From: Candidatus Shapirobacteria bacterium
GTDB lineage: Bacteria > Patescibacteriota > Microgenomatia > 0-14-0-10-38-17
DNA length: 64,000 nt
Reading direction: 5' to 3'
Assembly (NCBI GenBank): GCA_028695445.1
Contig: JAQVIV010000001.1
Coordinates: 6,028 to 70,027, forward strand
Shown: piece by piece, positions 13,091 to 51,213 of the stretch
Layout: each line of letters opens with the position of its first letter
Position numbering within the stretch: position 1 is the first letter of the stretch
Translations under genes and position numbers: made by a program
The notes under the pieces: generated by a model
What the model saw: the letters and a program-made list of their open reading frames with translations, nothing else
Databases searched by the model: none
Told to the model about the DNA's origin: nothing

Positions 13091-13141
13091 CATTAAATCA
13101 TTAGGAATTGAATAGAAATTAAGAATTAGAAATTAGAAATT
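13091..13141. repeat. copy of dispersed AT-rich intergenic repeat (cattaaatcatta-gaatt-gaatagaaattaagaattagaaatt)
   Basis: About 90% identical to 51171-51213, and matches the reverse complement of 41451-41495. Confidence 0.5.
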
Positions 13142-13164
13142 TTTTATATTGTTTGGGAATTAGG

Positions 13165-14298
13165 TCAATTGGAAATTGGTAGCTTTGAAGAATTTATTTT
13201 TAAAATAAATTCTTCAATCTCTTTTTTGAACCTTTCTTCGCTAAAATTTTTGGCCCAAGATTGAAGGATTTTTTTATCCCAGTTTATTTTATTGAAACGC
13301 TCTATTGCTTGGCTGATGGTATCAACATCGGTATCGTTGATCAAAATCCCCGTTTTGCCATCCTTAACCGACTCTCTAAAACCGCCGCCATTAAAGGCAA
13401 TTACCGGCGTACCGGCCGCTTGAGCCTCAACCACAGTAATACCAAAATCTTCATCCCGGGCTAAGGCCAAAAAGCCCCTGCTTTCAGCATAATAAGAAGC
13501 CAGTTCCTCGTCAGAAACTCGACCTAAAAATTCAACCCTCCCCTGACCAATTTTTTCTAAACGCTTCTTAAGCGTTTCATATCCTGCCGTACCGCCAATA
13601 ATTTTTAGGCAAAAACCTAAGTTCTTGGCGGCCGCAACTGCCTCTTCCAAACCCTTGGCTCCAACCAAGCGGGAAACAATTAAAAAATAGGCCTCTTTTT
13701 TAGCTTTTTGGCTGGCCTTAATAAGGCGATCTACCGCTACCGGAGGATAAATAATCTTTGACTGGACCCGATAAAATTTTTCCACTCGTCTGGCAACATT
13801 GCCTGAATTAACCAGCCAATAATTAATCTGTTGGGCTGAACGATAATCAAACTGGCGCAAAAAATGATTAACAATCAAGGCGTAGAGCCGAACCGGCCAA
13901 TATTTTTGCCAGTCTCGACTAGTTTGATAGCCATATAAAAACCTGGGCGGGGTATGACAATAGGCCACCACCTTAGTTTTCCTCCCAACCCGAAAACCCC
14001 GAGCAAAATAACCCGAACAGGAAGTAATCACTAAATCATAATCCGATAAATCCAAACTTCCCCAAATTTGAGGCATCAAAAAACGCAGCGGGCTATAAAG
14101 ATTCTTTTTCTTCAACAGGGGTCCCCAGGCGCTTTCAATGACTTTTCGATCAACAAAAGCCTGAGCAGCATCAGAATTTGGATCAATAAAGGCAGTATAA
14201 ATCGGCGCCTGAGGAAAAATATCGGCCAAAGCTCGCAAAACCCTTTCCGCTCCACCAAACTCTTTTAAATAATCATGAACTAGGGCAATCTTAACCAT
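13165..14298 (-). CDS. glycosyltransferase family 4 (GT4)
   Basis: N-terminal 'KIALVHDYLKEFGGAERV' and 'EDFGITVVEAQAAGTPVIA' GT4 motifs. Confidence 0.7.
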   Translation of the reverse strand: MVKIALVHDYLKEFGGAERVLRALADIFPQAPIYTAFIDPNSDAAQAFVDRKVIESAWGPLLKKKNLYSPLRFLMPQIWGSLDLSDYDLVITSCSGYFARGFRVGRKTKVVAYCHTPPRFLYGYQTSRDWQKYWPVRLYALIVNHFLRQFDYRSAQQINYWLVNSGNVARRVEKFYRVQSKIIYPPVAVDRLIKASQKAKKEAYFLIVSRLVGAKGLEEAVAAAKNLGFCLKIIGGTAGYETLKKRLEKIGQGRVEFLGRVSDEELASYYAESRGFLALARDEDFGITVVEAQAAGTPVIAFNGGGFRESVKDGKTGILINDTDVDTISQAIERFNKINWDKKILQSWAKNFSEERFKKEIEEFILKINSSKLPISN

Positions 14299-14310
14299 AC
14301 CGTGATAACT

Positions 14311-15195
14311 TTAAAATAAATTCATCTGTTCGTTCTTCCTTTCCAGATCCGCCATAAGAGAGCGAAATCCCAAAGAAGAAAAGGCTGATTTCAACTCCTG
14401 GGCATTGACCCGATCAAGACGGTAATTGGTTAAATCAACCTTAATGGGTACCTGGCAGTTAATTTTAGCCAAATCGGCCGACAGGAAAACATCATCCTGA
14501 TAGGAAACCAGCTTTTCTCTTATCGCACAAGAATCAATTTTAGCCAGATTATCATAAATCGCCCCCAAGGTCCCAAAGCAATTTAATAACTTAACTCCGG
14601 TCTTGGGGCCAATTCCCAAAGCGCCTGGATAATTATCCGAATTGTCCCCCACCAACCCCTTATAATCAACTACCTGACCGGGCTTAATGCCCAGATCTTT
14701 TTTAACAAAGACAGAGTCAACAATTTGGCCGCCAGACAAACCGTTCCTTGGTAAAAATAAATTAATCCTCTCATCAACTAACTGCATTAAATCTCTATCG
14801 CCGGTAACAATTAACACCGGCAGTTTTTTGCTAACTCTTTTGGCTACCGTACCAATAACATCATCGGCCTCAAAGCCGGTTTTTTGCTTATTGGCGATTT
14901 TGGCTCGATTTAAAATCTCTCTTACCAAACCAATCTGGCTAGCCAATTTCGGGTCGGTTTTGGGCCTTTTGGCTTGGTAACCGACAAATTTTTCGTGACG
15001 AAAATTGGGCCCGGGGGCATCAAGAGCAACAAGAAAGTAGTCGGGAGAAAAATCGGCCCAAAGTTTAAAAATCATTTTGAAAAACCCATAAACGGCTCCG
15101 GTTGGCTGACCGCCGGGAGCCGTTAAGGCCGGTAGGGCGTGAAAGGCACGGTGCAAAACAGCATGGCCATCAACAATAATCAACTGCTTATTCAT
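14311..15195 (-). CDS. stand-alone 5'-3' exonuclease (Pol I N-terminal domain/FEN-like)
   Basis: 'LIIVDGHAVLHRAFHALP' with acidic metal-binding clusters; H3TH region 'GDNSDNYPGALGIGPKTG'. Start placed at the internal Met to avoid overlapping ftsH. Confidence 0.7.
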   Translation of the reverse strand: MNKQLIIVDGHAVLHRAFHALPALTAPGGQPTGAVYGFFKMIFKLWADFSPDYFLVALDAPGPNFRHEKFVGYQAKRPKTDPKLASQIGLVREILNRAKIANKQKTGFEADDVIGTVAKRVSKKLPVLIVTGDRDLMQLVDERINLFLPRNGLSGGQIVDSVFVKKDLGIKPGQVVDYKGLVGDNSDNYPGALGIGPKTGVKLLNCFGTLGAIYDNLAKIDSCAIREKLVSYQDDVFLSADLAKINCQVPIKVDLTNYRLDRVNAQELKSAFSSLGFRSLMADLERKNEQMNLF

Positions 15196-17056
15196 TGGAT
15201 TTCCTTTTTTTGCCAACCACCCTCTCAAACTCCGCCTGATCAAGAGTTTCTTTAACCAGCAGCTCTTTGGCCAATCTGATTAGGATTTTCTTATTCTCCT
15301 TTAATATTGTCTTGGCCTGACGATAAGCTTTTTTAATAATGGCTTCTATTTCTCCATCAATCCTGGCTTTCATTTTGGCCGATACTGAATCAACAACCAA
15401 CCATTCTTCTTCCCCGTCCTGACCATCCCAAGTAACTGGTCCCAAAGAACTCATACCAAAATCAACTACCATACTTCGGGCCAGCCGATTAGCCTTTTTA
15501 ATATCATCAGAAGCCCCGGTTGTCATCTCTGAAAAAACCAATTCTTCAGCGGCTCGTCCGCCCAATAGAACCGACAATCTTTCCATGAGTCGAGTTTTAG
15601 TCTCCTGGGTTCGATCTTGAATTGGAGAAATCATCGTATGACCCAGGGTTAAACCTCGGGCAACAATAGAAACTCGACCAATAGGATCAACATTAGGCAA
15701 AAGATGAGCAATTAAGGCATGTCCCGATTCGTGATAGGCGGCAATTTTCCGTTCTTGTTCTGATTGTAATCTTTTCTTTTGCGGTCCTAGTTTTACTTTA
15801 GTGGCCGCCTCTTCTAAATCCTCCATTTCGATTGCCTTTTTGTTAGCTCTGGCCGCCAAAATTGCTGCTTCATTGAGCATATTCTCTAGATCAGCCCCAG
15901 AAAAACCGACTGTTTGCTTGGCCGCCTTTTCCCAGTCAACGGATTTATCAAAAGGTTTCCCCTGAGCATGAATTTTCAAAATCGCCCCCCGCCCCTGAAT
16001 ATCAGGCATATCCAAAACCACCCGCCGGTCAAAACGACCAGGCCGAAGCAGAGCCGAATCCAAAAGATCGGGGCGATTTGAAGCTCCAATGACAATCACG
16101 TTATCGTTGGGGGAAAAACCATCCATCTCTACCAGCATCTGGTTTAAGGTTTGTTCTCTTTCGTCATGACCGCTGCTAACAGTCCGAGATCGCGATCGGC
16201 CAATGCTTTCAATTTCATCAATAAAAATAATGGCCGGGGCGTTCTTTTTGGCTGTTTCAAATAAATCGCGCATTCGGGCCGAACCAACCCCGACCAACAT
16301 TTCCATAAATTCTGAACCGGCCATAGAATAAAAGGGGACATTAGCTTCTCCGGCTACTGCCCGAGCCAACAGGGTCTTACCGGTTCCCGGCGGCCCAACT
16401 AACAGCACTCCTTTGGGTGTTCTGGCCCCTAAGCGGCGATATTTAGCAGGATGTTTCAAGAAATCTACCACTTCTTCCAGTTCATTTTTGGCCTCATCAA
16501 CACCAGCCACGTCCGCAAAAGTAGCATCTTGCTTGCCCTTAAAAAATTGCCTTGCTTTGGATTTGCCAAAAGAAAAAATCGAGTCTTGAGCTCCTCGGGC
16601 CTGTTTAAAAGTAAAGTAAAAAAAGGCTCCAATCAAAACGAGCGGAATAATGGTTAACAAAATGTCAATCCAAATTTGCGATAGGCTTTCGTCTTTAACC
16701 TTAATTTCTAATTCTGATGGATCAATCCCCTCCTGTTGCAAAAGACTCACCAGACTATCGCCAGATTCTTTTCTGGTGGTGGTAAAAGATTGATCTTGAT
16801 AGTAAAGATCAATCTGGTTGCCGGAAATTTCAATTTTCTCGACTTTTTCGTTTTTTATATCAGAAAGGGCCTGAGAGAAGGAAATCTCTTCTGGTGAAAT
16901 AGCAAAATTTGCCAAAGCCCCTAAAAGCCAAAAGATTAAAAAAATCGCCAAAACCCAAGTCAAAATCTTTTTAAGATCTATCTTTATCTCTACTTTTTTA
17001 AACTTCTTTTGGGATAATTCGGAGAAGGGGTTGGTTTTTTTGTCTTTTTCAGGCAT
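15188..17056 (-). CDS. ftsH: ATP-dependent zinc metalloprotease FtsH
   Basis: N-terminal TM, AAA Walker A '[17 protein letters not shown]', SRH region, 'HESGHAL' zinc site. Confidence 0.9.
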
Positions 17057-17259
17057 GGGTATATTGTATCAAATCAGCCACTAATAAAGTAGGGTTTCTC
17101 CCAAATATCTAATTCCAAGGGTCCGAAGCTATCCGACCCCAGGGGTCGAACGGCTTCGGACCTCTAAAAAATCTTAAAAAATGATAGGCATAAGCGTAAT
17201 TTACCCAAAAGTCGGATTTTCTCCTAAATACTGCATTATGCTATAATATTTTTTAAACG

Positions 17260-17329
17260 TGCGGGGTAGTGTACGGTGGCACGTGAGGCTCATAATCTCA
17301 CAGATCAGGTTCAACTCCTGACCCCGCAA
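17260..17329 (+). tRNA. tRNA with CAT anticodon (Met elongator or Ile2/lysidine type); no encoded CCA
   Basis: Hand-folded cloverleaf. Acceptor tgcgggg/ccccgca; D stem gtgt/gcac; anticodon stem tgagg/tctca; loop ctCATaa; T arm tcagg-ttcaact-cctga. A TATAAT -10 sits at 17242-17247. Confidence 0.55.
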
Positions 17330-17366
17330 CATTGGCCGTTAATTTTTAGCCATTGGTCGTTGGCAA
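17305..17366 (+). repeat. direct repeat copy 1 (tRNA 3' end plus ~35 nt downstream)
   Basis: 'ttcaactcctgaccccgcaacatt' plus 'gg/ccgtta..tttagcc.ttggtcgttgg' repeats at 17512-17567. Confidence 0.6.
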
Positions 17367-17511
17367 TTTGAAAAATAAATAATTAAAGACTGTTTGAGAT
17401 CTGGGGGGGTTGGGTGGTGAACCTGATAAAAGATTCCTCATTGATGATGCATCAACCGACAATCGTGGTGTTGTTACACCAACCAACAAAACAAGAAAAA
17501 GGCTGGTGTCA

Positions 17512-17567
17512 TCTTCAACTCCTGACCCCGCAACATTAGTCGTTAGTCTTTAGTCCTTGGTCGTTGG
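17512..17567 (+). repeat. direct repeat copy 2 (orphan tRNA 3'-end fragment + gtcgttag/ttggtcgttgg repeat); left arm of the inverted repeat flanking the 4HB gene
   Basis: 24/24 identity to the 3' end of tRNA 17260-17329. Reverse complement of 17537-17567 recurs at 17946-17979. Confidence 0.6.
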
Positions 17568-17594
17568 TTCCTGATACTTTTTCTCTTTCCGAAA

Positions 17595-17963
17595 ATGTAT
17601 AAATTCGAAAAATTAAGGGTTTGGCAATCGGCGATGGATTTGGTAGTTGAAGTTTACAAATTCACAAAACAGCTACCCAAAGAGGAAACTTATGGCCTAA
17701 GAGACCAAATAAGAAGAGCAAGCGTTTCTATTGCTTTAAACATTGCCGAAGGGACGGGAGATAAAAGCGACAAAGAATTAATAAGATATCTTTATTTATC
17801 TAAAAAGTCTCTTTTTGAAACAATAACCGGATTAAAGCTTACTCAAAGAATTTATCAACTAAAGCCAGAACAAATTTTAAAAAATTGCGATAACCTTGGT
17901 AGATCGCTTCAAGCTTTAATAAACTCTTTATCTAAAAGCCAAAAACTAAAGACTAACGACTAA
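17595..17963 (+). CDS. four-helix-bundle protein (TIGR02436-like, '23S rRNA intervening-sequence protein' family)
   Basis: 'KFEKLRVWQSAMDLVVEVYKFTKQLPKEE..GLRDQIRRASVSIALNIAEG' hallmark. Its C-terminal codons lie in the right inverted repeat. Confidence 0.7.
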   Translation: MYKFEKLRVWQSAMDLVVEVYKFTKQLPKEETYGLRDQIRRASVSIALNIAEGTGDKSDKELIRYLYLSKKSLFETITGLKLTQRIYQLKPEQILKNCDNLGRSLQALINSLSKSQKLKTND

Positions 17964-17979
17964 AGACCAAGGACTAACC
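17946..17979 (+). repeat. right arm of inverted repeat (gactaaagactaacgactaaagaccaaggactaac) bracketing the 4HB gene
   Basis: Shares 19-nt and 13-nt blocks with the reverse complement of 17537-17567, and directly abuts the second tRNA. Confidence 0.5.
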
Positions 17980-17980
17980 T

Positions 17981-18054
17981 GGCAGGGTAGCTCAGGTGGT
18001 TAGAGCAGGCGAATCATAACCGTCAGGTCGTCGGTTCAAATCCGACCCCTGCCA
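17981..18054 (+). tRNA. tRNA with CAT anticodon (D arm/anticodon stem 'gctcaggtggttagagcaggcga' resembles bacterial tRNA-Ile2 and elongator Met); no encoded CCA
   Basis: Acceptor ggcaggg/ccctgcc; D gctc/gagc; loop atCATaa; T arm gtcgg-ttcaaat-ccgac. Confidence 0.65.
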
Positions 18055-18166
18055 CTTTAGGCTATCAAAGAAATCGGGTTATTAAAGAAAAAAGTTATTT
18101 CTTCTTCCAGCCCGATCTCGTTTTTTAGCTTATAGGGATGGTGTGAACGATGTTCACACCATAGCC

Positions 18167-18529
18167 CTAAAAGATAATTCCCCTAAAAAATAATTCCCAC
18201 CATTGCCGCCAGGGGGGCAGCCAATCTTTAGAGTCAGCGGTCACTTTTTCTATTCCAAAAATATCTTCTGGCAAGATCAAGACTGTTTCGTCCTTAGTCA
18301 AGCCCAAGCTATTACGCGCTTCTTGTTCTAAAAATTGCTCCGTCTTAACATAATCGAGCTGTGCCCTGAGCTGTTCATTGCTTTCTCTTAGAGCTTCCAG
18401 ATCCTGTTTTTCTTTTCTGACTACCAGACCCCGATTGACAAGATTAACGGTGTTGCTGGATAAAGAAACAATAGCAAAAAGCAAAAACAACAATAGCAGA
18501 ATTTTAAAGACTTTCCCCATGGTTGACAT
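18167..18529 (-). CDS. FtsB/DivIC-like septum formation initiator (short TM + coiled coil)
   Basis: N-terminal TM 'ILLLLFLLFAIV', followed by a coiled-coil 'KQDLEALRESNEQLRAQLDYVKTEQFLEQEAR'. Start chosen at an internal Met. Confidence 0.4.
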   Translation of the reverse strand: MSTMGKVFKILLLLFLLFAIVSLSSNTVNLVNRGLVVRKEKQDLEALRESNEQLRAQLDYVKTEQFLEQEARNSLGLTKDETVLILPEDIFGIEKVTADSKDWLPPWRQWWELFFRGIIF

Positions 18530-18647
18530 AGAGGCCGATCCGGTGTTATTATAAGCTATAAATGAGCTTAATTTCTTCACTGGCAAGCTTTTCCTTAAAT
18601 AAAAAGGCTCCCACAATCAATAAAGTAGGCTATTTTTAAACAAACAA

Positions 18648-20261: not shown

Positions 20262-20412
20262 GGGGATATTATATTCTCAGGATATTATGTTCGCTACGCT
20301 CATACCAGCCCCATCAGGCTGGAAGAAAATCAGTTACGATTTTCTTTGATGGCCTGAGTGGGTCAGGGTAGATTCGAACCGCCAAAACCTCGATTTTACC
20401 TGCCCGCCGTAC

Positions 20413-20487
20413 TGGTGCGCCTGCTTGGATTCGAACCAAGGACATCTACTTTATAAGAGTAGCGCTCTACCATTGAGCTACAGGCGC
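20413..20487 (-). tRNA. tRNA with TAT anticodon (predicted tRNA-Ile decoding AUA), CCA encoded
   Basis: Reverse-complement cloverleaf. Acceptor gcgcctg/caggcgc; D gctc/gagc; anticodon stem ctact/agtag; loop ctTATaa; T arm cttgg-ttcgaat-ccaag; terminal CCA. Confidence 0.6.
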
Positions 20488-20554
20488 GCTCTTGCCAACT
20501 AAAGTTACTGATCCCAAAAGATTAGTCCTTTATATTATACTCCACAAGATTGGA

Positions 20555-24085: not shown

Positions 24086-24235
24086 TTATTTTCCGCTGTA
24101 CTCTTTCCTCATCTGATACTCGGACGCTTTGCCTTCGTTCCATTGGCTAACCGGACGCAAATAACCAACAATCCGGGAATAAACCTCGCAGGGGGTGCGA
24201 TCTTTTGGAGTTGCCTTGTTTTTCTTTTTAACCAT
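24086..24235 (-). CDS. 49-aa ORF encoding the NrdD C-terminal glycyl-radical domain (MVKKKNKATPKDRTPCEVYSRIVGYLRPVSQWNEGKASEYQMRKEYSGK)
   Basis: Hand-translated; not in the ORF track (<60 aa). 'RIVGYL...WN.GK..E...R' matches the class III RNR glycyl-radical loop (E. coli 'RVCGYLG..WNKGK'). SD 'GGAGG' 7 nt upstream of the ATG. Lies between truncated nrdD and nrdG. Confidence 0.55.
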   Translation of the reverse strand: MVKKKNKATPKDRTPCEVYSRIVGYLRPVSQWNEGKASEYQMRKEYSGK

Positions 24236-24484: not shown

Positions 24485-26545
24485 CTACTTCTCCTTATAC
24501 CCTATTTCTTCGTCGCACCTAGGACAAAATTGCCACTCGCCTGACAAATAACCATGCTTTGGACAAACAGAAAAGGTTGGGGTAATGGAAAAATAAGGCA
24601 GTTTATAATTGGCTGTTACTTTTTGGAGCAGATTTTTAACGCTTTCGGTATCAGGCAAACTTTCCCCTAAAAAGCCATGGATGACAGTGCCACCCGTATA
24701 CTTACATTGTAATTCATCCTGATGATCCAGGGCCTCAAAAAGGTCGGTGGTGTAATCGACCGGCAAATGAGTCGAGTTGGTATAAAAAGGCGCTTCTTTC
24801 TTTTCTTGGTAATTTTTTTCATTAGCACAAATAATTTTGGGAAATTGCTCTTTATCCAGCCTGGCGAAACGATAGGCGGTGCTTTCCGCCGGTGTGGCTT
24901 CAAGATTAAACATTTCCCCAGTTTCTTGCTGGTAAATTAAAATTTTTTCCCGCATATAATCCATTACCTCTAAAGCAAAAGCTTGCCCTTCGGGGTCGGC
25001 AATATTTTTCCCCATCAAGTTAACCAAGGCCTCATTCATACCGTTTAAGCCAATGGTGTTAAAGTGGTTGCGCCAGTAAACTTTATTGCGCTGATAAATA
25101 TCAGATAAATAATGGCGGCAGTAGGGGTACAGGCCGTCGTGGGTAAATTTTTCCACCGCCTCTCTTTTAATTATCAGCGAATCTTTGGCCAAATCCATTA
25201 GACGGCCAAGGAGAGTAAAGAATTTTCTTTTGGCAAATCCCTCGGTTTTAGAGCTTGCTTTGGCCAAATAACCAATTCGAGGCAAGTTGATGGTAACCAC
25301 CCCCAAGGAACCGGTTAGGGGATTGGCAGCAAACAACCCGCCTCGCCGCCTTAATTCCCGATTATCTAAGCGCAAACGACAACACATACTTCGAGCATCG
25401 TCAGGATCCATATCAGAATTAACAAAATTAGAAAAATAGGGAATACCATATTTTCTGGTCATTTCCCAAACCGGCTCCAAATTTTTATTATTCCAATCGA
25501 AGTCCTTGGTAATTGAATAGGTTGGAATTGGGAAGGTAAAGACTCGCCCTTGAGCATCGCCCTCCATCATGGTTTCGGCAAAAGCTCGATTAATCATATC
25601 CATTTCTTTTTGAAAATCTTCATACTTATCTTGGGTTGGCTGGCCGGCAATAACAACCGTTTCCTCGCCGACCATTTTGGTAGGATGAATATCCAAAGAA
25701 ATATTGGAAAAGGGGGTTTGGAAGCCCACTCTGGTAGGAACATTCATATTAAAAACAAACTCTTGAAGAGCCTGTTTAACCTGTTTATAGGTTAGGTTGT
25801 CATAACGAACAAAAGGAGCCAAATAGGTATCAAAATTGGAGACTGCTACTGCTCCAGCCACCTCGCCTTGAATGGTATACATAAAATTAACAATCTGCCC
25901 TAGAGCCGAAGAAAGGTGCCTTGGAGGAGCACTGTTAACCTTGCCGGAAACGCCGCCAAATCCCTTAATTAAAAAGTCTTTTAAGTCCCAGCCGGTACAA
26001 TAGGCCGAAAGGGAAGACAAATCATGAATGTGAAGATCGCCTTGGCGATGAGCCTTTCTTACCTCTCGAGAATAAATTTTATTAAGCCAAAAATTGGCCG
26101 AAATTATACTGGCCACATGATTATTCAAGCCCTGTAAAGAATAGGTCATGTTGGCATTCTCCTTTACTCGCCAGTCGCCCTGATTAAGATATTTTTCTGT
26201 TAACTCATCGGCATCGACCAAACTGCTAACGCTTCTTAATTTTTGGTGAAGCTGACGATAAAGGGTGTAGGCGCTATGGACTTCTTCGTGAGCACGCCTT
26301 AATAGAGTCTGCTCAACAATATCTTGAACCTGTTCTACCTCGGGAGTAATGGAAGAATTAAACCGCTTCTCAAGTTCTAAAACCACCTCTTTGGTTAGGC
26401 GGCGAACCTCTTGAACATCATCTTTACCGGCAGCCTTAAAAGCGGCCTTAATCGCCCTTCCAATCTTATTAGGACTAAAGGCCACTATCCGGCCATTTCT
26501 TTTTTTGATCCTGGTAATTTTTGATTTTATTCCTCCTCTAACCAT
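24485..26545 (-). CDS. nrdD: anaerobic ribonucleoside-triphosphate reductase large subunit (class III RNR), ending right after the Zn ribbon
   Basis: N-terminal ATP-cone ('KITRIKKRNGRIVAFSPNKIGRAIKAA'), conserved class III core, C-terminal 'CPKH...CPRC' Zn site; stops 9 residues later, before the 'RxxGY' glycyl-radical loop. Confidence 0.85.
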   Translation of the reverse strand: MVRGGIKSKITRIKKRNGRIVAFSPNKIGRAIKAAFKAAGKDDVQEVRRLTKEVVLELEKRFNSSITPEVEQVQDIVEQTLLRRAHEEVHSAYTLYRQLHQKLRSVSSLVDADELTEKYLNQGDWRVKENANMTYSLQGLNNHVASIISANFWLNKIYSREVRKAHRQGDLHIHDLSSLSAYCTGWDLKDFLIKGFGGVSGKVNSAPPRHLSSALGQIVNFMYTIQGEVAGAVAVSNFDTYLAPFVRYDNLTYKQVKQALQEFVFNMNVPTRVGFQTPFSNISLDIHPTKMVGEETVVIAGQPTQDKYEDFQKEMDMINRAFAETMMEGDAQGRVFTFPIPTYSITKDFDWNNKNLEPVWEMTRKYGIPYFSNFVNSDMDPDDARSMCCRLRLDNRELRRRGGLFAANPLTGSLGVVTINLPRIGYLAKASSKTEGFAKRKFFTLLGRLMDLAKDSLIIKREAVEKFTHDGLYPYCRHYLSDIYQRNKVYWRNHFNTIGLNGMNEALVNLMGKNIADPEGQAFALEVMDYMREKILIYQQETGEMFNLEATPAESTAYRFARLDKEQFPKIICANEKNYQEKKEAPFYTNSTHLPVDYTTDLFEALDHQDELQCKYTGGTVIHGFLGESLPDTESVKNLLQKVTANYKLPYFSITPTFSVCPKHGYLSGEWQFCPRCDEEIGYKEK

Positions 26546-41441: not shown

Positions 41442-41450
41442 TAAAATTTC

Positions 41451-43684: not shown

Positions 43685-43697
43685 ACTAACAATGATT

Positions 43698-45095: not shown

Positions 45096-46602
45096 AAGAT
45101 TCCACAGTATAAATGAAAATTTCTGTCGCTGGATCTAAATAACAATCTCTATTAAGGCCCATTTTTTGAGCGCAAATCTCTCCCAAAAAGTCCTCTTTAG
45201 TCCAATCGCCTTCTTGGGCCACTTGAGGAAGAAATGTCCCCGTTAAGGTATCCTGCTTTAAATAAACACCATGCTTGCCAAGTTCAACTTCTTCCCAAGA
45301 GGTCACTTTTTTAAGCGGAGAAAGAAGAGAAATTTCAATAGTAATTTCTTCTAATTCATCTTTGGTAACGGGCGAAAAGCGGGGATCATTGGCGGCCGCG
45401 GCAATAGCCATATTGGCCACTGCTTGCCAAACCGGCTCCTTAGCCTCAAAACCGCCAAGACAACCCCGAAGCTGACCATTTTTTTTGAGAGTAACAAAAA
45501 CAGCCCTTTTGGTTTCCAAAGAAGCCTTGGGGGCTTTTTTTAGGGGGATTTGGCCGGTAGCCAAATAACCAGTTAAAGCTTCTCTGGCCCAAGAGAGTAA
45601 TATTTGTTTCTCTTCCTGGTCAATTCCAACAAAGTCTTGTTCCTGTTTTAGCCAAAAAGCCACTGCCCCATAACCAACCACCTGTTCTGTCTGACCAGAA
45701 ACTACCCCCGAATCGCCTTGAGCCAAAATTTTGGCCTCTTTTAGACCAATTTTACTGGCAACCAACAAACCCACTCTAATGGCATCAGCCCCGCAGGCAA
45801 AAGTATCAACCGCCGGATATTGATTGGCCAAATTGGCCAGTGTTTGGCCAAACCTTTCCCTACTACCGGAGGCAATCGCCGCCAGGGTTTTAGTATCAAC
45901 CTTTTGGGCCGTGATTTGATCGGGATAATGAGACAAATCAGAAGAAATTACCAGCAAGGTTTTTGGGTCATTGGCCAAAACTTGAGTTAATTTTTGAGCC
46001 AAAGCCAAAAGATCAGAATCTTTAACCTGACCGATTAAAATTGGAACAATGCTAAAATCAGATAAAACCGTTTGTAAAAAAGGCAACTCCACTTCAAGAA
46101 CATGATCATCCTGATGAGTCCGACGATTAACAACAATTACTCCTTGATCAACCAAATTAGCAATCAAATTTTTATCTGTCGACACCTGACCCAAGGGGGT
46201 CTGCCAAAAATCATGATCATCCAAAACAATTTTGTCAGTTGATGATCGGTGAGTGGTTCCCAATAAAATTACCCGATTAAAACCGCTACTTTTGAGAAGA
46301 TTAAAACCGTAAGCGGCCACTGGGCCAGAATACGACCAGCCGGCATGAGGGACAATAATTATTTGCGGTGGCAAAGAAAAGGCAAAGTTAGCCTCAGCCA
46401 AAAAAGTCTTTATTTGTTTCCTGGCTTCCCCCTCTTCTTCAGGATAAAATTGTCCGGCTACTGCCGGCAAGCGAACCAAAAAATCTTTCTCATTATTCAT
46501 GATGGCACCCTTCTCTAATTTTAGCAAAACTGCCAAAGTTACCAAAAACAAAGCCACGGCCCCGAAAACAAAGAAACCCAACACTCTTCGCTTATTTTTC
46601 AT
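45085..46602 (-). CDS. fused MEMO1-family / AMMECR1-domain protein with N-terminal TM
   Basis: MEMO1 'AGQFYPEEE...IIVPHAGWSYSGPVAAYGF'; AMMECR1 'RAVFVTLKKNGQLRGCLGGF...NDPRFSPV'. Confidence 0.65.
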   Translation of the reverse strand: MKNKRRVLGFFVFGAVALFLVTLAVLLKLEKGAIMNNEKDFLVRLPAVAGQFYPEEEGEARKQIKTFLAEANFAFSLPPQIIIVPHAGWSYSGPVAAYGFNLLKSSGFNRVILLGTTHRSSTDKIVLDDHDFWQTPLGQVSTDKNLIANLVDQGVIVVNRRTHQDDHVLEVELPFLQTVLSDFSIVPILIGQVKDSDLLALAQKLTQVLANDPKTLLVISSDLSHYPDQITAQKVDTKTLAAIASGSRERFGQTLANLANQYPAVDTFACGADAIRVGLLVASKIGLKEAKILAQGDSGVVSGQTEQVVGYGAVAFWLKQEQDFVGIDQEEKQILLSWAREALTGYLATGQIPLKKAPKASLETKRAVFVTLKKNGQLRGCLGGFEAKEPVWQAVANMAIAAAANDPRFSPVTKDELEEITIEISLLSPLKKVTSWEEVELGKHGVYLKQDTLTGTFLPQVAQEGDWTKEDFLGEICAQKMGLNRDCYLDPATEIFIYTVESFAE

Positions 46603-46718
46603 AAACCAATTTTAACAGTTCTTGCCTTCCAGCACCGGAATCTAGAGGATAATAATAGTTTATCGTTCTGTTGGATCCCGGATCCGGCAGAAGCTGATTT
46701 TCCGATCAATTTATTTGT

Positions 46719-46724
46719 TGCTAT
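46719..46724 (+). promoter_or_regulatory. candidate extended -10 (TGcTATAAT) for valS
   Basis: TATAAT 16 nt upstream of the valS ATG, preceded by TG. Confidence 0.35.
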
Positions 46725-46739
46725 AATAAATTAATTATC

Positions 46740-48836
46740 ATGGATAAACGCTACCAACCCGAAAAAACTGAAAAAGAGATTAGCGCTCTTTGGGAAAAGA
46801 GTGATTGCTTTACTCCTAAAGTTGATCCCAAAAAAGAGCCTTTTGTTATTACCCTGCCTCCCCCCAATGTTACCGGCGGCCTTCACGCCGGCCATGCTAT
46901 GTACACAATTGAGGATATTATGGCCCGCTTTAATCGAATGAAAGGAATACCAACCCTGTTTCTGCCCGGTTTTGACCATGCCTCAATTGCAGTAGAATAT
47001 TTAGTTAGTAAACAGATTAGAAAAAAAGGAAAGACAAAGTTTGATCTTGGCAAAGAAGAATTCCTAAAACAGGCCCACCAATTTGCCGATCAGTCTCGGG
47101 ATTACATAAAAAAACAGTTAAAACTGTTAGGCTTTTCTTTAGACTGGTCGCGAGAGGCCTACACCATGAGCCAGGATTACTCTGAAGCAGTCAAGACTGC
47201 TTTTAATCACCTAAAAGAAAGGGGGCTGATTTATCAGGGGGAAACTATTGTCAATTGGTGCCCCGATTGTCAAACGGTTCTTTCCGATCTAGAAAATGAA
47301 CATCTTGAAAAAAGAGGTCAACTTTATTACCTTAAATACGGCCCCGTTACCATCGCTACCACCCGACCAGAAACCATGTTTGCCGATGTGGCGGTGGCCG
47401 TTCATCCTGATAACAAGCAATATAAATCCCTGATTGGCCAAAAAATTCCCCTTCCTTTAACAAAACGAAAGATTCCGATTATTACTGATGAGACAGTTGA
47501 CCCGGAATTTGGCACCGGGGCCTTAAAAATTACCCCCGCCCATGACGAGTTAGATTTTCAAATCGGCAAGCGCCACCACCTCAAAACCCTAATTGCCATC
47601 GACAAAGAGGGCAGACTAACTAAAATCACCGGTCCCTTCCAGGGCTTGACTGCTCAAGAAGCCAGAAAGAGGGTGATCGAAAAGCTAGAGAAACAAGGCC
47701 TGTTGGTTAAAACCGAAACCATCACCCACTCGGTTGGCCATTGCCAGCGTTGCGGAACAACAACCGAACCGCAAATTTCCCTTCAGTGGTTTGTCAGGAC
47801 CAAGCCTTTGGCCAAAAGGGCTATTCAAGCGGTTAAAAAAGGCCAGATTAAAATCGTTCCCGATCATTTTGCTAAAATTTATTTTCATTGGCTAGGAAAT
47901 ATTCATGATTGGTGTATTTCCCGACAGCTCTGGTGGGGCCACCCAATTCCGGTTAAGGGGGAATCGGCCATTTTAGACACTTGGTTTTCTTCTTCTCTTT
48001 GGCCAATGGCTACCTTGGGCTGGCCAAAAAAAACAGCTGATTTTGCCTACTTTTATCCCAATACTATTCGAGAAACCGGTTACGACATCATCTTCTTTTG
48101 GGTCGCCCGAGAAATTATGATGTGTCTGGAATTAACAGGTAAGATCCCTTTCAAAACCGTTTATCTTCACGGTTTGGTCCGCGATGAAAAAGGCCGTAAA
48201 TTTTCCAAAACCAAAGGCATTGGTTTTGATCCGGTAGAAACCATTGCTAAAAACGGGGCCGACGCCCTAAGAATGGCCTTGGTTTTAGGCAATGCTCCCG
48301 GAGCCGACGTCTCCCTGCCGGAAGAAAAAGTAATCAGCATGCGCAATTTTACCAACAAAATTTGGAATGCCACCCGATTCATTATAATGAACCAGAACAA
48401 TTTTAATTTAAAGATTAAAAGTCCGAAGTTAAATTTGCCTTCTTTTGGTAAAAATAATGAGGATGATCAAAAAATTTTAAAATCACTGGAAAAAACTATT
48501 GACAGCGTTACCAACCATATTGATAACTATCGTTTTGGCCAAGCCGCCGAAGATATTTACGGCTTTTTCTGGCATAAATTTTGTGATATTTATATTGAAC
48601 AAACCAAAGACCGGCTTTATGATCAAGATAATCCTGGTGGCCAGCAAGAAGCTCTATTAGTATTGCTCTTCGTCTTAAAAAAAAGCCTAAAACTACTTCA
48701 TCCTTTTATGCCCTTTGTCACCGAGGAGATTTGGACTAATCAGCTAGGAGAAAAAACCCCTTTAGCAATTTCACCCTGGCCGAAAATAACAGTTAAAAAT
48801 TCAAAGTCAAAAATTAAAAATCCTAATAGAAATTAG
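46740..48836 (+). CDS. valS: valine--tRNA ligase (compact form, 698 aa, no long C-terminal coiled coil)
   Basis: 'PPPNVTGGLHAGHA' HIGH motif, editing-domain 'TTRPETMFADVAVAVHP', 'KFSKTKG' KMSKS. Confidence 0.8.
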   Translation: MDKRYQPEKTEKEISALWEKSDCFTPKVDPKKEPFVITLPPPNVTGGLHAGHAMYTIEDIMARFNRMKGIPTLFLPGFDHASIAVEYLVSKQIRKKGKTKFDLGKEEFLKQAHQFADQSRDYIKKQLKLLGFSLDWSREAYTMSQDYSEAVKTAFNHLKERGLIYQGETIVNWCPDCQTVLSDLENEHLEKRGQLYYLKYGPVTIATTRPETMFADVAVAVHPDNKQYKSLIGQKIPLPLTKRKIPIITDETVDPEFGTGALKITPAHDELDFQIGKRHHLKTLIAIDKEGRLTKITGPFQGLTAQEARKRVIEKLEKQGLLVKTETITHSVGHCQRCGTTTEPQISLQWFVRTKPLAKRAIQAVKKGQIKIVPDHFAKIYFHWLGNIHDWCISRQLWWGHPIPVKGESAILDTWFSSSLWPMATLGWPKKTADFAYFYPNTIRETGYDIIFFWVAREIMMCLELTGKIPFKTVYLHGLVRDEKGRKFSKTKGIGFDPVETIAKNGADALRMALVLGNAPGADVSLPEEKVISMRNFTNKIWNATRFIIMNQNNFNLKIKSPKLNLPSFGKNNEDDQKILKSLEKTIDSVTNHIDNYRFGQAAEDIYGFFWHKFCDIYIEQTKDRLYDQDNPGGQQEALLVLLFVLKKSLKLLHPFMPFVTEEIWTNQLGEKTPLAISPWPKITVKNSKSKIKNPNRN

Positions 48837-48992
48837 AAATTAAAAACAAATTGCTAAATTGCTACATTGTCTAATTGCTTTTTTAGGCTTGTTTTTAATA
48901 GCAAAAACATCGCCAACAATTTAACAATTCAGCAGTGTAACAATGTTCTTTTCATTAAAAATTAGAAATTAGAAATTTTTAAGGAAAGGGGG

Positions 48993-49262
48993 GTGAGGAA
49001 AATGAAAAAGGTCAAAATTCAAAAAAAAGATGGCCGCATCGAAGATTTTGATAAGGAGAAATTAGAAAGAAGCGTTTTTTCTGCCGGAGCCACTAAGGGT
49101 CAATCCCAACTAGTTACTCAAGAGGTAGAAGAGTGGCTTTACAACGTTGCCCTAGAAGAAATCGTTAACACTCAGGAAATTCGTAATAAGATCATTGGCT
49201 CTCTAACAGAAAAAAACCCCAGGGCGGCTAAGAGCTACCAAGAGTACCAAAAAAAAGGTTAA
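48993..49262 (+). CDS. stand-alone ATP-cone domain protein
   Basis: 'VKIQKKDGRIEDFDKEKLERSV' matches the ATP-cone N-terminal signature; 89 aa. Strong RBS 'AAGGAAAGGGGGGTGAGG'. Confidence 0.5.
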   Translation: MRKMKKVKIQKKDGRIEDFDKEKLERSVFSAGATKGQSQLVTQEVEEWLYNVALEEIVNTQEIRNKIIGSLTEKNPRAAKSYQEYQKKG

Positions 49263-49323
49263 ACCGGTTTTCCGTTCTCAAAAAATAGTTGCCTAAAATC
49301 CTTAAGTATTAGGTAATATTGTT

Positions 49324-50034
49324 TTGTTTCTTATTGGGCGAATATTAAAGTCAAAACTTATGATTAAGGTAAACGTTTTCTCTCAAATTATTGTTACTAT
49401 TGAAGAAAAAAAGAAAACTCTCCAGCAATTGTTTTGCCAAAAACAAAAACAACTCCAAATTAAAATTGGTTGTTGGGTTTCTTCGGGAAAACAAGGTTTC
49501 AAAAAGCTTAGAAAATTACCGCAAAATTACCGCAATATCGCCGCAAAGATTGTTGATCCGGTAATGCTGGTAATTTTTACGACTGCATTCACCATCAGCC
49601 TCATCCTCCCCACCAATCAAGCCGAAAAAATAAGGCAGGTCTTTTTGGCTTCTCCTAAAAACTTCAACAACCAAATGAACATTGTCCAGGTTCTTATTGC
49701 CAATGGCTATTTAAAAACCGCTAAAAAGGAACTGGATAAAATTGGCAATCCGGAGTTCTTGACTAAAGAAGAAAAAGAAGTTTGGCAGAAAAATTACCTA
49801 ACTTGGGGTCTGCACTCGCCGGAAGGCCAAGACAGATTAATTGACAACTGGGAAAAATTTTTAGAAAAATTTTCTAATTACAAAATCGGCTGGGTCTATT
49901 TGGGCTATTTCCAATCGTTGCGAAACAAAGAGCAAGAAGCCCAAGAATCTTTCCATAAAGCTGAAAAAATCGACCCAGGATTAGAAGAAGAGATAAAAAA
50001 AATTACCAATTTTCAAATTCCAATTAACCAATAA
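49324..50034 (+). CDS. hypothetical membrane-anchored protein with TPR-like helical region (start probably internal)
   Basis: TM 'VMLVIFTTAFTISLIL'; helical repeats. No catalytic motifs. Confidence 0.3.
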   Translation: MFLIGRILKSKLMIKVNVFSQIIVTIEEKKKTLQQLFCQKQKQLQIKIGCWVSSGKQGFKKLRKLPQNYRNIAAKIVDPVMLVIFTTAFTISLILPTNQAEKIRQVFLASPKNFNNQMNIVQVLIANGYLKTAKKELDKIGNPEFLTKEEKEVWQKNYLTWGLHSPEGQDRLIDNWEKFLEKFSNYKIGWVYLGYFQSLRNKEQEAQESFHKAEKIDPGLEEEIKKITNFQIPINQ

Positions 50035-50102
50035 AACTTTTAACGTCAATTCACCCAAAACATTTCAGTTATTTCAATAAATCCAATTCCTAAAATAGAT
50101 AC

Positions 50103-50200
50103 CCACGGGCAAAGCCCGTGGTCCTCGCGTTTCGCCCCGTTCACTCGCCTACGGCGAGTGAGCTATTAATATCGGTTTCATCCACGGCCTACGGCCGTGG
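50103..50200. repeat. three consecutive GC-rich perfect hairpins (CCACGGGC-aaa-GCCCGTGG; TCACTCGCC-tac-GGCGAGTGA; CCACGGCC-tac-GGCCGTGG)
   Basis: GC-rich palindromes in an AT-rich intergenic region. The first is near-identical to the hairpin at 10108-10130. Confidence 0.55.
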
Positions 50201-50361
50201 TTTTCACCTATCTTGAAATAAAGCACCTTCTTTACCCCAACAAATTCTAATTATTTTTCTAAAGGTCTGAGGCTGTTTCACGCTAGGGGTCCGGGTTTAT
50301 GGCAAAGTCTGAGCGTCCGATGAACGGGTTGGGAACTGGGTTAATTGAAAATTGGAAATTT

Positions 50362-51063
50362 TTATTTGTCTTCTTTTGAAGCGGCTTCCTTTGGTTTTGT
50401 TTCGGACTGACCTTCTTTGGATTGTTCTTCTTGGCCCTCTTCTTCCTTACCCTCCTTACCAATAACCTCCGGTTCTTCAGCCAGAGCCGGTTTTTCCTCC
50501 TCCTCGGCTGGAGCTTCAAGTTTGGCTACAACTTCTTCTTTATCTGCCATGATAACGACTCCATCATTGACCTTAAGATCGGCCACCCTAATAACATCAC
50601 TTATTTCTTTTAATGAAGAGACATCGGCCTCTAGATGATCAGGTAATTCTTCCGGCAGAGCCTCAACCTCAATTTCTAATAAAGGCTGAATCAGAATTCC
50701 TTCCCCACTTTCGGCCCCTGGAGCCTCGCCAACCAACTCAATTGGCACTGAAACTTGAGTTTTTTTGGCCAAATCAACCTGGCGGAAATCAACATGAAGA
50801 ATTTTATCGGTCACCGGGTCAACTTGGATATCGCCAACCAAAACCGGATGAGAGGTTTTAGTCTTGCCAATGACCAAATCAATCAAACCGCTTTCGCCAG
50901 TTTTTTCAAAAACGGATAAAAAATCTTGGTAACCAAGCTGAAGAGCCTGTGATTTAATAGCTTGACCGTAGAGGTTGACCGGCAATAAACCTTCACGGCG
51001 CAAATTTTTAACCTTGCGGCCAGTAACCGTTCTTTTATCAACGACTAATTTTGGTCTTGCCAT
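50362..51063 (-). CDS. rplY: 50S ribosomal protein L25 (general stress protein Ctc form) with acidic/lysine-rich C-terminal tail
   Basis: 'RTVTGRKVKNLRREGLLPVNLYGQ' L25 N-terminus; beta-barrel domain; low-complexity tail. Confidence 0.8.
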   Translation of the reverse strand: MARPKLVVDKRTVTGRKVKNLRREGLLPVNLYGQAIKSQALQLGYQDFLSVFEKTGESGLIDLVIGKTKTSHPVLVGDIQVDPVTDKILHVDFRQVDLAKKTQVSVPIELVGEAPGAESGEGILIQPLLEIEVEALPEELPDHLEADVSSLKEISDVIRVADLKVNDGVVIMADKEEVVAKLEAPAEEEEKPALAEEPEVIGKEGKEEEGQEEQSKEGQSETKPKEAASKEDK

Positions 51064-51125
51064 AACGAAAGTATTTTAACTAAAAAGGTTAAAGAAAGCA
51101 AATACTAATAAAATTTTTAATTCTC

Positions 51126-51213
51126 AATTCCCAATTTCTATTCAATTTTTAATTATCTAAATTTTTAGAACATTAAATCATTAGAAATTCAATAAGAATT
51201 AAGAATTAGAAAT
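51126..51213. repeat. inverted pair of the dispersed AT-rich repeat (partial reverse-complement copy 51126-51165 + direct copy 51171-51213)
   Basis: 51171-51213 'cattaaatcattagaaattcaataagaattaagaattagaaatt'. Matches 13091-13141 and the reverse complement of 41451-41495. Confidence 0.55.

Follow-up and report, generated by a model that had tools for sequence, protein, structure and literature searches.

Correia elements (NEMIS/CREE) and other MITEs such as RUP, ERIC/IRU and Nezha are ~100-150-bp non-coding near-palindromes that are intergenic, dispersed, polymorphic among strains and co-transcribable as long hairpins. RNase III acts on the Correia hairpins, and Correia elements are able to provide a promoter or a terminator. 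The BIMEs, or REP mosaics, of enterobacteria are extragenic and modular, with alternating arms and accessory motifs at the 3' ends of transcription units; a REP unit is a short palindrome, rich in GC and ~35 nt long, that is associated with RAYT transposases. STRR sequences of heterocystous cyanobacteria are tandem heptanucleotide arrays, intergenic only, with several array families per genome. Classical intervening sequences (IVS) are located in the apical parts of 23S helices 9/10, 25 and 45 and are removed by RNase III. For CPR 23S rRNA genes, one report describes many short (<200 bp), ORF-less insertions at IVS-type sites and, at 23IS2 and 23IS4, short insertions other than introns (PMC11270868). 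A term search of that paper and searches of other literature gave no report that ties CPR rRNA insertions to an intergenic repeat family.

The window analysed here, a 64,000-nucleotide stretch of a MAG of the very small, uncultured Candidatus Shapirobacteria, contains two full copies of a ~110-nt near-palindrome, one half element and several short AATTNNN heptamer arrays. We place the core-bearing repeats as a new, lineage-restricted family in the MITE/BIME/Correia-like class of small palindromic repeats.

41445-41553, unstranded: full composite element between the stop of a VanW-domain gene (41441) and the tsaD start (41574); core arm 41445-41495 (reverse orientation), centre ~41496-41505, partner arm 41506-41553
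51112-51221, unstranded: full composite element, reverse complement of 41445-41553; partner arm 51112-51160, core arm 51171-51221
13078-13145, plus strand: half element, core arm only (CATTAAATCATTAGGAATTGAATAGAAATT plus heptamers); nhmmer E 7.2e-10, model positions 61-130 only

Like Correia elements and similar MITEs, the family is non-coding, near-palindromic, intergenic and strain-polymorphic, and would form long hairpins if co-transcribed; it has the length (under ~600 bp), terminal inverted repeats and dispersed, insertion-polymorphic copies of a MITE, but not a target-site duplication at each copy. It differs from these elements in having no sequence similarity to them, no TA or other target duplication, variable-length tandem heptamer arrays in place of fixed terminal inverted repeats, a low copy number (3 in ~82 kb) and common half elements. 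As in BIMEs, units in alternating orientation join accessory motifs in an extragenic mosaic at the 3' ends of transcription units; the arms, however, are AT-rich, ~50 nt long and based on tandem heptamers, unlike the short GC-rich palindrome (~20-40 nt) of REP. Many different 7-, 8- and 9-nt arrays occupy the spacers of this genome, which recalls STRR, but those belong to another phylum and have other sequences, whereas the arrays in the window adjoin a conserved core that is itself non-repetitive, and they pair up into palindromes. The window has no HIP1 site.

Each arm (~50-60 nt) consists of the non-repetitive core TTTAAAA-CATTAAATCATTAG-AAATTSAATA followed by AATTNNN heptamers in varying number. 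Two inverted arms make a near-palindrome of ~110-125 nt, with stop codons in every frame and no ORF, and lone arms exist too. The two ~100-bp palindromic loci recognised in an earlier note on this DNA proved to be one ~110-nt composite present twice, in opposite orientations on the plus strand. The copies are mutual reverse complements with 90-91% identity (pairs I1, 75 nt, 91% complementarity, and I6, 40 nt, 90%), and the arms inside the 41.4k copy are 71% complementary (pair I10). An nhmmer search returned 41565-41443 (E 4.5e-27) and 51103-51227 (E 6.8e-25), and 3 copies in all in the 81.6-kb source contig. Of the three sites given earlier for a ~45-nt element, 51171-51214 is exact, 13091-13141 is more diverged, and 41520-41553 is instead a diverged partner arm; the reverse-complement copy placed at 41451-41495 is present at 41452-41495, minus strand, with one mismatch. 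These exact and one-mismatch matches to the 44-nt element compare with 0.00 expected from shuffles at ≤3 mismatches, and AATTAGAAATTAGAAATT at the same threshold has 19 matches in the window against 0.62 expected. The spacers that hold elements have a GC content of 16-19%. The bare heptamer motif is unspecific, being common in AT-rich viral contigs (>120 matches); the family is defined only by the core-bearing element. An Rfam search of the window found three tRNAs and no family match for the repeats, and phage and plasmid collections gave zero matches to the element.

Closely related strains differ through gain, loss or exchange of copies. At the orthologous VanW-tsaD site the element is kept in L133 (a 94% strain) and L149 (a 77% relative), is missing in L162, L163 and L165, and is partial in L164, which retains only the tsaD-proximal arm. 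Heptamer number differs among orthologous copies, that of L149 having two heptamers fewer than the window copy. The Logan contigs L002 and L003 each begin at 41511, the palindrome centre. The 51.1k copy lies between the terminator hairpin of a DUF4012 gene and the core promoter of the L25 gene, both genes being on the minus strand.

51222-51240, minus strand: GC hairpin CCTTGTCTAAAAGACAAGG, intrinsic-terminator stem of the DUF4012 gene (terminator-like scan match)
51064-51103, minus strand: predicted L25 core promoter and leader; conserved sequence with a putative promoter role

Strain L002 matches the window at 98.9% over 11 kb and has nearly the same flanking genes; there, an unrelated ~113-nt cassette substitutes for window positions 51104-51216, as judged from a single short-read contig; part of that cassette recurs at 94% in L132 and L138. 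The predicted L25 promoter comprises a -35 TTGCTT (51101-51096), a 17-nt spacer, a -10 TAAAAT (51078-51073) and 9 nt to the ATG, and the variable cassette begins 2 nt upstream of the -35. The promoter/leader sequence is common to all relatives (L155-L161, L163, L165), and everything upstream of the -35 differs.

Copies also enter unrelated intergenic spacers and, in relatives, 23S rRNA hairpins at their apical loops. Exact matches to the 23-nt core come from 24 metagenome contigs, representing ~20 unrelated contexts with differing flanks, and from one other MAG among 185,579 species genomes. The 41.4k copy is 93.6% identical over 109 nt to a copy in L153 that adjoins the start of a GAPDH-like gene (N-terminus identified by eye), and the two loci are otherwise without similarity. 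Composite, half and nested forms combine with the D1 module, GC hairpins and octamer/9-mer arrays into locus-specific mosaics. Rfam places the copies of L134, L135, L141 and L145 inside LSU rRNA. The L135 23S gene has three copies (positions 155-311, 726-869 and 1520-1683), two of them identical over ~115 nt, and that of L134, 87% identical over the aligned 5' ~1,500 nt, has one copy only (1235-1379). Of the L135 inserts, the first two fall in the hairpins near model positions 163 and 583, and we take the L134 and L135 inserts to lie at or near the classical IVS helices, with helix numbers assigned from the E. coli sequence. Like IVS, these inserts sit in apical hairpin loops and are predicted to form extended stem-loops; the likeness is confined to the copies of relatives, those in the window being intergenic and outside rRNA. 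The 'empty' rRNA sites differ across the whole helix tip, so these are not clean insertions.

The orientation of the repeats relative to flanking genes had been described as mixed, but in all three core-bearing copies of the window the core arm lies right after the upstream stop, and both composites and the half copy are oriented alike to their co-directional neighbours. Of 67 AATT-period-7 arrays across the clade, 61 are intergenic. In 40 of 55 (40:15), the T-rich strand comes after a stop, frequently tailing a GC-hairpin terminator, or the A-rich strand comes before a start; this count takes both arms of each palindrome, relies on ORFs that we called ourselves, and includes loci that were partly chosen for having the element. 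Counter-examples lie at 12062-12127, 12972-13046, 48824-48848 and 58583-58640. T-rich heptamers immediately follow the VanW stop in 5/6 lineages. At the 51.1k copy the first element heptamers (AATTTTAAATTTCTAATT...) form the T-rich tail of the DUF4012 terminator hairpin, and this hairpin with AATTTC heptamers is kept in five further lineages (L002, L165, L159, L160 and L161). The service of T-rich arrays as the tail of a conserved GC-hairpin terminator in five lineages is compatible with a possible role at transcription-unit boundaries. A GC stem plus T-tract of the intrinsic-terminator type, fitting the consensus scan, was found only at 51240-51222 with its tail and at its orthologues, and the scan had no match at the 41.4k and 13k copies. 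The element itself differs from an intrinsic terminator: it has no GC stem, its tail is an interrupted U-rich heptamer array and not a U run, and most of it lies beyond any plausible termination point. The T-rich strand tends to come after the upstream gene and the A-rich strand before the next promoter or start, which is the probable reason that copies are tolerated at transcription-unit boundaries.

The full copies are predicted to fold into stable hairpins (z -3.7 to -5.8, with 0/200 shuffles as stable). For the 41.4k copy, both strands would give an AU hairpin of ~50 bp (z -4.3 and -3.7), values for the 51.1k copy are -5.8 and -4.3, and the 13k half element has no self-structure (0 kcal/mol). 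RNAalifold gave no covariation support (term +0.27; double changes in only 2/23 pairs), and the hairpin may be a by-product of inverted duplication.

Shorter arrays and a second, octamer-based family occupy further spacers.

6788-6814, plus strand: short array (AAGAATTAAAAATTAGAAATT) before pcrA, 8 nt from its annotated start; D3, I18
12062-12127, minus strand: heptamer array (AATTCAAAATTCAAAATT... on that strand) filling the spacer from the fpg stop to the recF-like start; D4, I7
24294-24325, minus strand: heptamer array (AGTTAGAGATTAGGAATTAAAAATTAAAATT on that strand) upstream of the 49-aa nrdD C-terminal ORF (24086..24235)
24446-24485, plus strand: octamer array (AGCAATTT)n directly 3' of the nrdD main ORF stop, (AAATTGCT)n in gene sense; I8, I9
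48824-48848, plus strand: heptamer array overlapping the LeuRS stop codon
48848-48944, unstranded: inverted octamer pair in the spacer from LeuRS to the ATP-cone gene, with (AAATTGCT)n at 48848-48884 facing (AACAATTT)n at 48915-48944
48953-48977, plus strand: truncated arm (CATTAAAAATTAGAAATTAGAAATT) before the ATP-cone gene, 24 nt from its ATG and just 5' of the Shine-Dalgarno; D3 96%, I13 96%
50343-50360, plus strand: short array AATTGAAAATTGGAAATT abutting the L25 stop, T-rich in L25 sense

Short cores had been noticed upstream of pcrA and of the ATP-cone gene, and both are there (6794-6811, 1 mismatch, and 48960-48977, exact). So is the second family seen at 24448-24484 and 48846-48945, which lies far above shuffle expectation: AGCAATTT octamers have 4 matches against 0.00 expected, at 24451-24485, 48848-48879 and 48915-48944. 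The array at 24446-24482 is inverted relative to 48848-48884 (I8, 37 nt, 81%), the nrdD array (24446-24485) matches L124 3406-3461 at 81%, and L167 has a similar octamer array in the same nrdD spacer. The hairpin at 48848-48944 is weak (z -1.9; 15/200 shuffles equally good). Octamer arrays of the same type stand at the LeuRS/ATP-cone site in L159 and L155 and at unrelated sites in L162, L165 and L148. The array before pcrA closes, at the 3' side, a module that has TATTGGTCT/GACCGATA 9-mers (6749-6812). Spacers preceding the ATP-cone gene of L155, and a stretch of L150, match this module at 78% identity. In L167, the nrdD C-terminal ORF is preceded by an L155-type cassette and by an array equivalent to that at 24294-24325. 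The array at 12062-12127 is A-rich in the sense of both fpg and the recF-like gene.

What kind of element is this? The earlier note preferred a MITE-like or REP-like repeat to a promoter motif; the ~20 contexts, the L002 replacement and the 23S copies bear out that preference, and the target-site duplications and autonomous partner of a MITE did not appear. The element behaves like a miniature mobile or recombining repeat, unlike a simple promoter motif. That it is a true MITE, an IS deletion derivative moved in trans by a transposase that recognises terminal inverted repeats in the heptamer arrays, would account for small, non-coding units with inverted-repeat ends, for numerous unrelated contexts that are polymorphic among strains, and for several identical copies in one rRNA gene. 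We nevertheless think it unlikely. The best flanking direct repeats (4-7 nt) fall within the element's own AAATT arrays and do not exceed mismatched-flank controls (4-8 nt), so that the duplications sought at the inverted pairs are not seen; the ends are ragged, with variable heptamer number, and lone arms occur as often as full copies. Among called genes of the compared relatives' loci, an unsystematic look at ~290 kb of clade sequence revealed no transposase and no autonomous element whose ends match; the lack of matches in phage and plasmid collections and the modest copy number also speak against such mobility.

A regulatory or punctuation module selected in place, with the similarity between loci reflecting shared function and not copying, strikes us as quite improbable. 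T-rich arrays would then serve as tails of terminators; A-rich arrays would be promoter-upstream or UP-like DNA, or would be bound by a DNA-binding protein. The orientation bias, the conserved terminator design, the heptamers trailing the VanW stop, the recurrence in three lineages (the window, L155 and L159) of TTAGAAATT at ~24 nt before the ATP-cone ATG and the contact with the conserved L25 -35 all agree with this, but copies in 23S hairpin loops cannot act as promoters or terminators, the 51.1k copy is dispensable in the near-identical L002, and relatives, which have no AT-rich DNA at that place, carry unrelated, even GC-rich sequence before the same predicted -35. Copies occur beyond the first-noted loci and keep no fixed distance from gene starts, being 20 nt from tsaD and 48 nt from L25, with the 13k copy facing a gene end; overall, distances to starts run from 7 to >50 nt, and sigma-70-like promoter matches show no enrichment at elements. 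Moreover, 90-94% identity over >100 nt between unlinked loci is more than a degenerate AT-rich signal needs. Local replication slippage, arising independently in each spacer as in cyanobacterial STRR, fits the many different arrays, their variable heptamer number and the commonness of the bare motif in any AT-rich DNA, and it is a possible origin for the short arrays at 6788, 12062, 24294, 48824 and 50343. For core-bearing copies it is very improbable and largely refuted by the recurrence of the non-repetitive core (24 nt exact, ~45 nt with ≤1 mismatch, 0.00 expected) and by the 91-94% identity of the whole 75-109-nt element across unlinked loci and across genomes.

We consider it fairly likely that these are lineage-restricted non-coding repeats of Shapirobacteria and close Patescibacteria that spread by a recombination-type process and are tolerated at gene boundaries. 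Elements end within arrays that pre-exist at empty sites, and together with the lack of target-site duplications this points to array recombination as a route, which we regard as at least as likely as transposition. Spread would then proceed from array to array, through recombination, template switching or gene conversion, rather than by classical cut-and-paste transposition. Beside a GC hairpin the T-rich strand would supply a U-rich terminator tail, and a transcribed full copy would form a ~50-bp A-U hairpin, the type of duplex that RNase III removes from rRNA intervening sequences.

A broader reading, which we find rather unlikely, is that Shapirobacteria spacers draw on a small set of portable cassettes, recombined from locus to locus via their tandem-array ends; heptamer arms with the core, arrays of octamers and 9-mers, and small GC palindromes would be among them. 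The AT palindrome could then have two roles: between genes, as a terminator tail and a spacer upstream of promoters; in 23S rRNA, as an IVS that RNase III excises. If true, a streamlined CPR genome would have a mobile-element system that is driven by recombination and needs no transposase.

The 13k half element, whose heptamer end points to the stop of a GT4 glycosyltransferase gene (13165..14298, minus strand), has further modules beside it.

13018-13073, unstranded: companion modules of the 13k copy, a AATTGACAGTTAAAAATTCAAAGTCCAAAGT module (family D1, also at 48784-48812) and a GC hairpin
13051-13073: the GC hairpin, GGGGCACTC..GAGCGCCC, -17.8 kcal/mol, z -2.6

The ~130-nt module 13017-13144, which includes the 13k copy, recurs at 82% identity in another Patescibacteria MAG (L124 745-892), there preceding a pilin-like gene on the opposite strand. 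The hairpin stem at 13051-13073 is perfect in L124 and has a compensatory change in L131 (GGGACACTC..GAGTGTCC).

The window has a GC content of ~41% and a high coding density, and its longer spacers have a GC content of 16-28% and many tandem arrays with units of 7, 8 and 9 nt. The heptamer core AATTAGAAATTAGAAATT occurs 19 times in the window with ≤3 mismatches (0.62 expected), and a 44-nt element has an exact copy at 51171-51214 and a minus-strand copy with a single mismatch at 41452-41495 (0.00 expected). Two loci had been described as inverted pairs. Their repeats are real, but they are not separate elements: the repeat finder pairs 41445-41519 with 51147-51221 (75 nt, 91%) and 41514-41553 with 51112-51151 (40 nt, 90%), which makes 41445-41553 and 51112-51221 reverse complements of each other, two copies of one composite. 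Every composite has two arms that are related yet distinguishable, a core arm (CATTAAATCATTAGAAATTCAATAAGAATT plus heptamers) and a partner arm (TTAGACAATAAAAATTGAATAGAAATT plus heptamers), which are ~71% complementary to each other (repeat-finder pair I10). The copy proposed at 13091-13141 is present as a lone core arm, which nhmmer places at 13078-13145 and matches to model positions 61-130 only.

Core-bearing copies in the window, with the upstream gene from whose stop the core arm is read
41445-41553, 44-nt element on the minus strand: composite; VanW-domain gene
51112-51221, reverse complement of the former: composite; DUF4012 gene
13078-13145: lone core arm; GT4 glycosyltransferase gene

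The three window copies are arranged identically with respect to transcription, with the core arm first after the upstream stop, as the T-rich strand. The mixed orientation claimed in the earlier note is therefore untrue of the window's core-bearing copies. Its second, octamer family is real, as judged by the repeat finder and by array and motif counts. Both composites are predicted to form ~50-bp imperfect A-U hairpins in either strand (MFE -19.5 to -27.5 kcal/mol; z = -3.7 to -5.8; 0 of 200 shuffles as stable), a strong predicted hairpin potential, and the half copy is predicted to lack structure. Nine distinct composites were aligned (A1), and their pairing had no support from covariation; covariation is unusable here because the heptamer arrays leave the pairing register ambiguous. 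No family in Rfam matches the element, so a known RNA family was dismissed.

A collection scan with the bare heptamer core gave nothing useful. AT-rich DNA contains this motif too often, so searches used the non-repetitive core instead. Across 185,579 species-representative genomes, a 24-mer of this core found one contig, L124, from another Patescibacteria MAG. It carries a ~130-nt module that is 82% identical to window positions 13017-13144 and comprises the D1 repeat, a GC hairpin, CCAAAATTTTGG and the core arm; the module lies upstream of a pilin-like gene, with different flanking genes and the opposite orientation to them. In JGI metagenomes a 23-mer of the core matched 24 contigs. One of them, L154, is a chance match that lacks element-like flanks, and several more are duplicates. 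Counting the window and L124 along with the rest, the family is seen in ~20 different contexts, both as full composites and as lone arms. For example, the copy in L153 is 93.6% identical to 41445-41553 over 109 nt and adjoins the start of a GAPDH-like gene (read by eye), and the two loci have nothing else in common. The family is real and dispersed, and its non-repetitive core is conserved.

The source contig (81.6 kb as reconstructed) holds three copies only, and this number is far too low for a DNA uptake sequence. A phage or plasmid origin was rejected, as blastn found no matches in the phage and plasmid collections; the single match among viral contigs (L166) is attributed to chance, lying in coding sequence of a GC-rich phage and lacking element-like flanks. 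A cyanobacterial origin, or identity with STRRs, was likewise set aside, given no HIP1 site in the window and proteins that are named Candidatus Shapirobacteria.

Copies in L134, L135, L141 and L145 lie inside LSU rRNA genes (Rfam). L135 has three, at 23S positions 155-311, 726-869 and 1520-1683, the first two identical over ~115 nt. The 23S gene of L134, 87% identical to that of L135 over the aligned 5' ~1,500 nt, has the third copy only. According to cmscan, the first L135 insert (144 nt) occupies the apical loop of a hairpin at model positions 151-178, and the second starts within a hairpin, at model position 583. By comparison with the E. coli sequence, we take the three insertion sites to be helices 10, 25 and 45. 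Helices 25 and 45 are classical IVS sites. The presumed helix-45 copy of L135 has a perfect 20-nt GC palindrome at its palindrome centre, which L134 lacks at the orthologous site. Palindromes of this type (CCTGYCTGCCGRCAGGCAGG and variants) are nested in AT-rich elements in L135 (1059-1078), L131 (52-71), L124 (~848-867) and L142, and in the last three they interrupt copies at a shared position in the array; the window has none. Tsurumaki et al. describe many short, ORF-less, non-intron insertions in CPR 23S genes, at the IVS-type sites 23IS2 and 23IS4, and suggest that these are excised by RNase III (PMC11270868). In the literature searched, including PMC11270868, no report tying CPR 23S insertions to intergenic repeats was found.

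Turnover occurs at the level of strains. The Logan contig L002 matches window positions 41511-52631 at 98.9% identity, and, SNP tracts aside, all indels and ~50 substitutions are confined to 51104-51216, where an unrelated 113-nt AT-rich cassette stands in place of the composite. One cassette breakpoint falls 2 nt upstream of the L25 -35 hexamer and the other at the terminator hairpin, and the 3' part of the cassette has 94% copies in L132 and L138. In the VanW-tsaD spacer, the composite is retained in a 94% strain (L133) and, two heptamers shorter, in a 77% relative (L149); L164 has the tsaD-proximal arm only, and L162, L163 and L165 have other cassettes. Contigs L002 and L003 both start at 41511, the palindrome centre. 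Relative to these two contigs, the window also has dense substitution clusters at 44495-44721, 47546-47559 and 48302-48320, in otherwise near-identical G6PD and LeuRS genes, and these look like recombination tracts.

The GC hairpin at 51240-51222, together with the first bases of the element, scores as an intrinsic terminator, and a GC hairpin with AATTTC-type heptamers after the DUF4012 gene is found again in L002, L165, L159, L160 and L161. The predicted core promoter and leader of L25 (TTGCTT, 17 nt, TAAAAT, 9 nt, ATG) are conserved in all relatives. The DNA upstream of the -35 differs between lineages throughout, and the composite thus appears to fill free spacer and not an essential UP site. 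Consensus sigma-70 promoter matches at the three copy loci do not exceed shuffles, and a sigma-70 promoter inside the arrays is not supported, since matches are not enriched; hand-drawn hexamer readings, such as a heptamer periodicity yielding a 16-nt spacer, are speculation. Clade sequence totalling 289 kb has 67 AATT-period-7 arrays, of which 61 lie between genes. Among the 55 that are flanked by two genes, 40 present a T-rich sense strand behind the closest stop or an A-rich sense strand ahead of the closest start, and 15 do neither, a count in which palindromes enter twice, ORF calls were made for this analysis and loci were partly selected. The orientation tendency is suggestive. A counter-example of opposite polarity is the YidD-YidC spacer (58583-58701), where two AAAACTC-type heptamer arrays form an inverted pair whose A-rich arm comes first in sense.

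The octamer family and other modules behave like the core-bearing element: octamers, the D1 module, the GACCGATA 9-mers upstream of pcrA and GC palindromes all turn up again in unlinked spacers and other genomes. Because octamers flank nrdD and the ATP-cone gene, an nrd-specific operator or NrdR box was considered, and was discarded on finding the same arrays upstream of tsaD (L162), L25 (L165) and a pilin gene (L148). A ~200-nt cassette is common to L155 (1895-2140, LeuRS to ATP-cone spacer) and L167 (4638-4849, nrdD split spacer), at ~79% identity with indels. It contains octamers, GC hairpins, GACCGATA 9-mers and heptamers, and its 3' part has a 78% match to the pcrA upstream region (window 6749-6812). 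The GC-rich palindrome GGTCCGAAGC...GCTTCGGACC is a further dispersed repeat family, with copies at window 17115-17163, L124 2399-2447 and L159 ~9920-9960, the last just upstream of the L25 promoter.

Copies have been pasted into unrelated spacers and rRNA loops. We infer that they spread through the heptamer arrays, via recombination or template switching. The ends of the element are embedded in pre-existing arrays: at empty sites, which lack the composite, AATTTC-type heptamers still stand directly after the VanW stop and the DUF4012 hairpin. Copies would be tolerated because a T-rich arm suits the position behind a terminator hairpin and an A-rich arm the position ahead of a promoter, and full copies, once transcribed, would be processed by RNase III.

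Three other explanations were weighed against spread through arrays. The best supported of them is a classical transposon-derived MITE. The earlier note had favoured a MITE-like or REP-like repeat, and dispersal, the number of contexts and strain-level turnover all agree with this; a MITE in the strict sense fails, since the target-site duplications that the note had proposed to look for around the inverted pairs were sought at the element ends and none was found beyond controls. Second in support is a regulatory module selected in place, and pure slippage has the least support of the three.

The family thus joins a known class, small palindromic dispersed repeats, and is specific to a CPR lineage. 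Its closest analogues in behaviour are Correia-type MITEs and BIMEs, and the whole module picture resembles BIME-like mosaics; rRNA IVSs are closest to its 23S copies and cyanobacterial STRRs to its arrays. CPR genomes are small and usually held to be repeat-poor, and to our knowledge their gene-boundary signals are essentially unstudied. As a lineage-specific example that adds no new principle, the family is useful for CPR genomics and for the biology of rRNA insertions. It is a searchable marker of rearrangements between strains and of breaks in assemblies (a palindrome centre is where L002 and L003 end), of the layout of CPR terminators and promoters and, since the same element occurs in intergenic DNA, of the origin of short ORF-less CPR 23S insertions.

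Several other loci deserve mention. On the minus strand, nrdD is split (24086-26545): a 686-aa ORF (24485..26545) covers Pfam NRDD positions 1-529 of 562, and a separate 49-aa ORF (24086..24235), preceded by a GGAGGTG Shine-Dalgarno of its own, accounts for positions 531-562 at the C-terminal end of the profile, presumably where the glycyl-radical site lies. The 249-nt spacer between them holds octamer and heptamer arrays. The split is kept in L167 (NrdD identity 91%), and in protein P0292 (731 aa) both parts are fused.

The L25 gene with its promoter (50362-51063) is inverted in the window, L002 and L155-L158 relative to L159-L161, where L25 converges on the DUF4012 gene across a gap of 32-38 nt. 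Both inversion breakpoints lie in array-bearing spacers. An inversion caused by the repeat was not upheld, as L163 and L165 have the orientation of the window. The adjacent 327-nt spacer (50035-50361; 44% GC) has several GC hairpins and is conserved with L159, with changes that look compensatory; it may be a structured RNA, although Rfam gives no match with E as high as 1. In L162, between the Memo/AMMECR1 gene and LeuRS, 16260-20574 encodes a reverse transcriptase, a bAvd-like gene and a Laminin_G_3 target protein, a set that looks like a diversity-generating retroelement and is absent from the window.

Two tRNA genes also stand out. ARAGORN predicts a tRNA-Ile with anticodon UAU on the minus strand (20413-20487), which Rfam also scores as a tRNA; such an anticodon is uncommon in bacteria. 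A second copy of the 3' part of tRNA-Met (17260-17330) lies ~200 nt downstream (17305-17363 and 17509-17567, 86%), and TTAGTCG-type heptamers follow both copies; the arrangement may be what remains of an attachment site, or may have arisen by repeat-mediated duplication.
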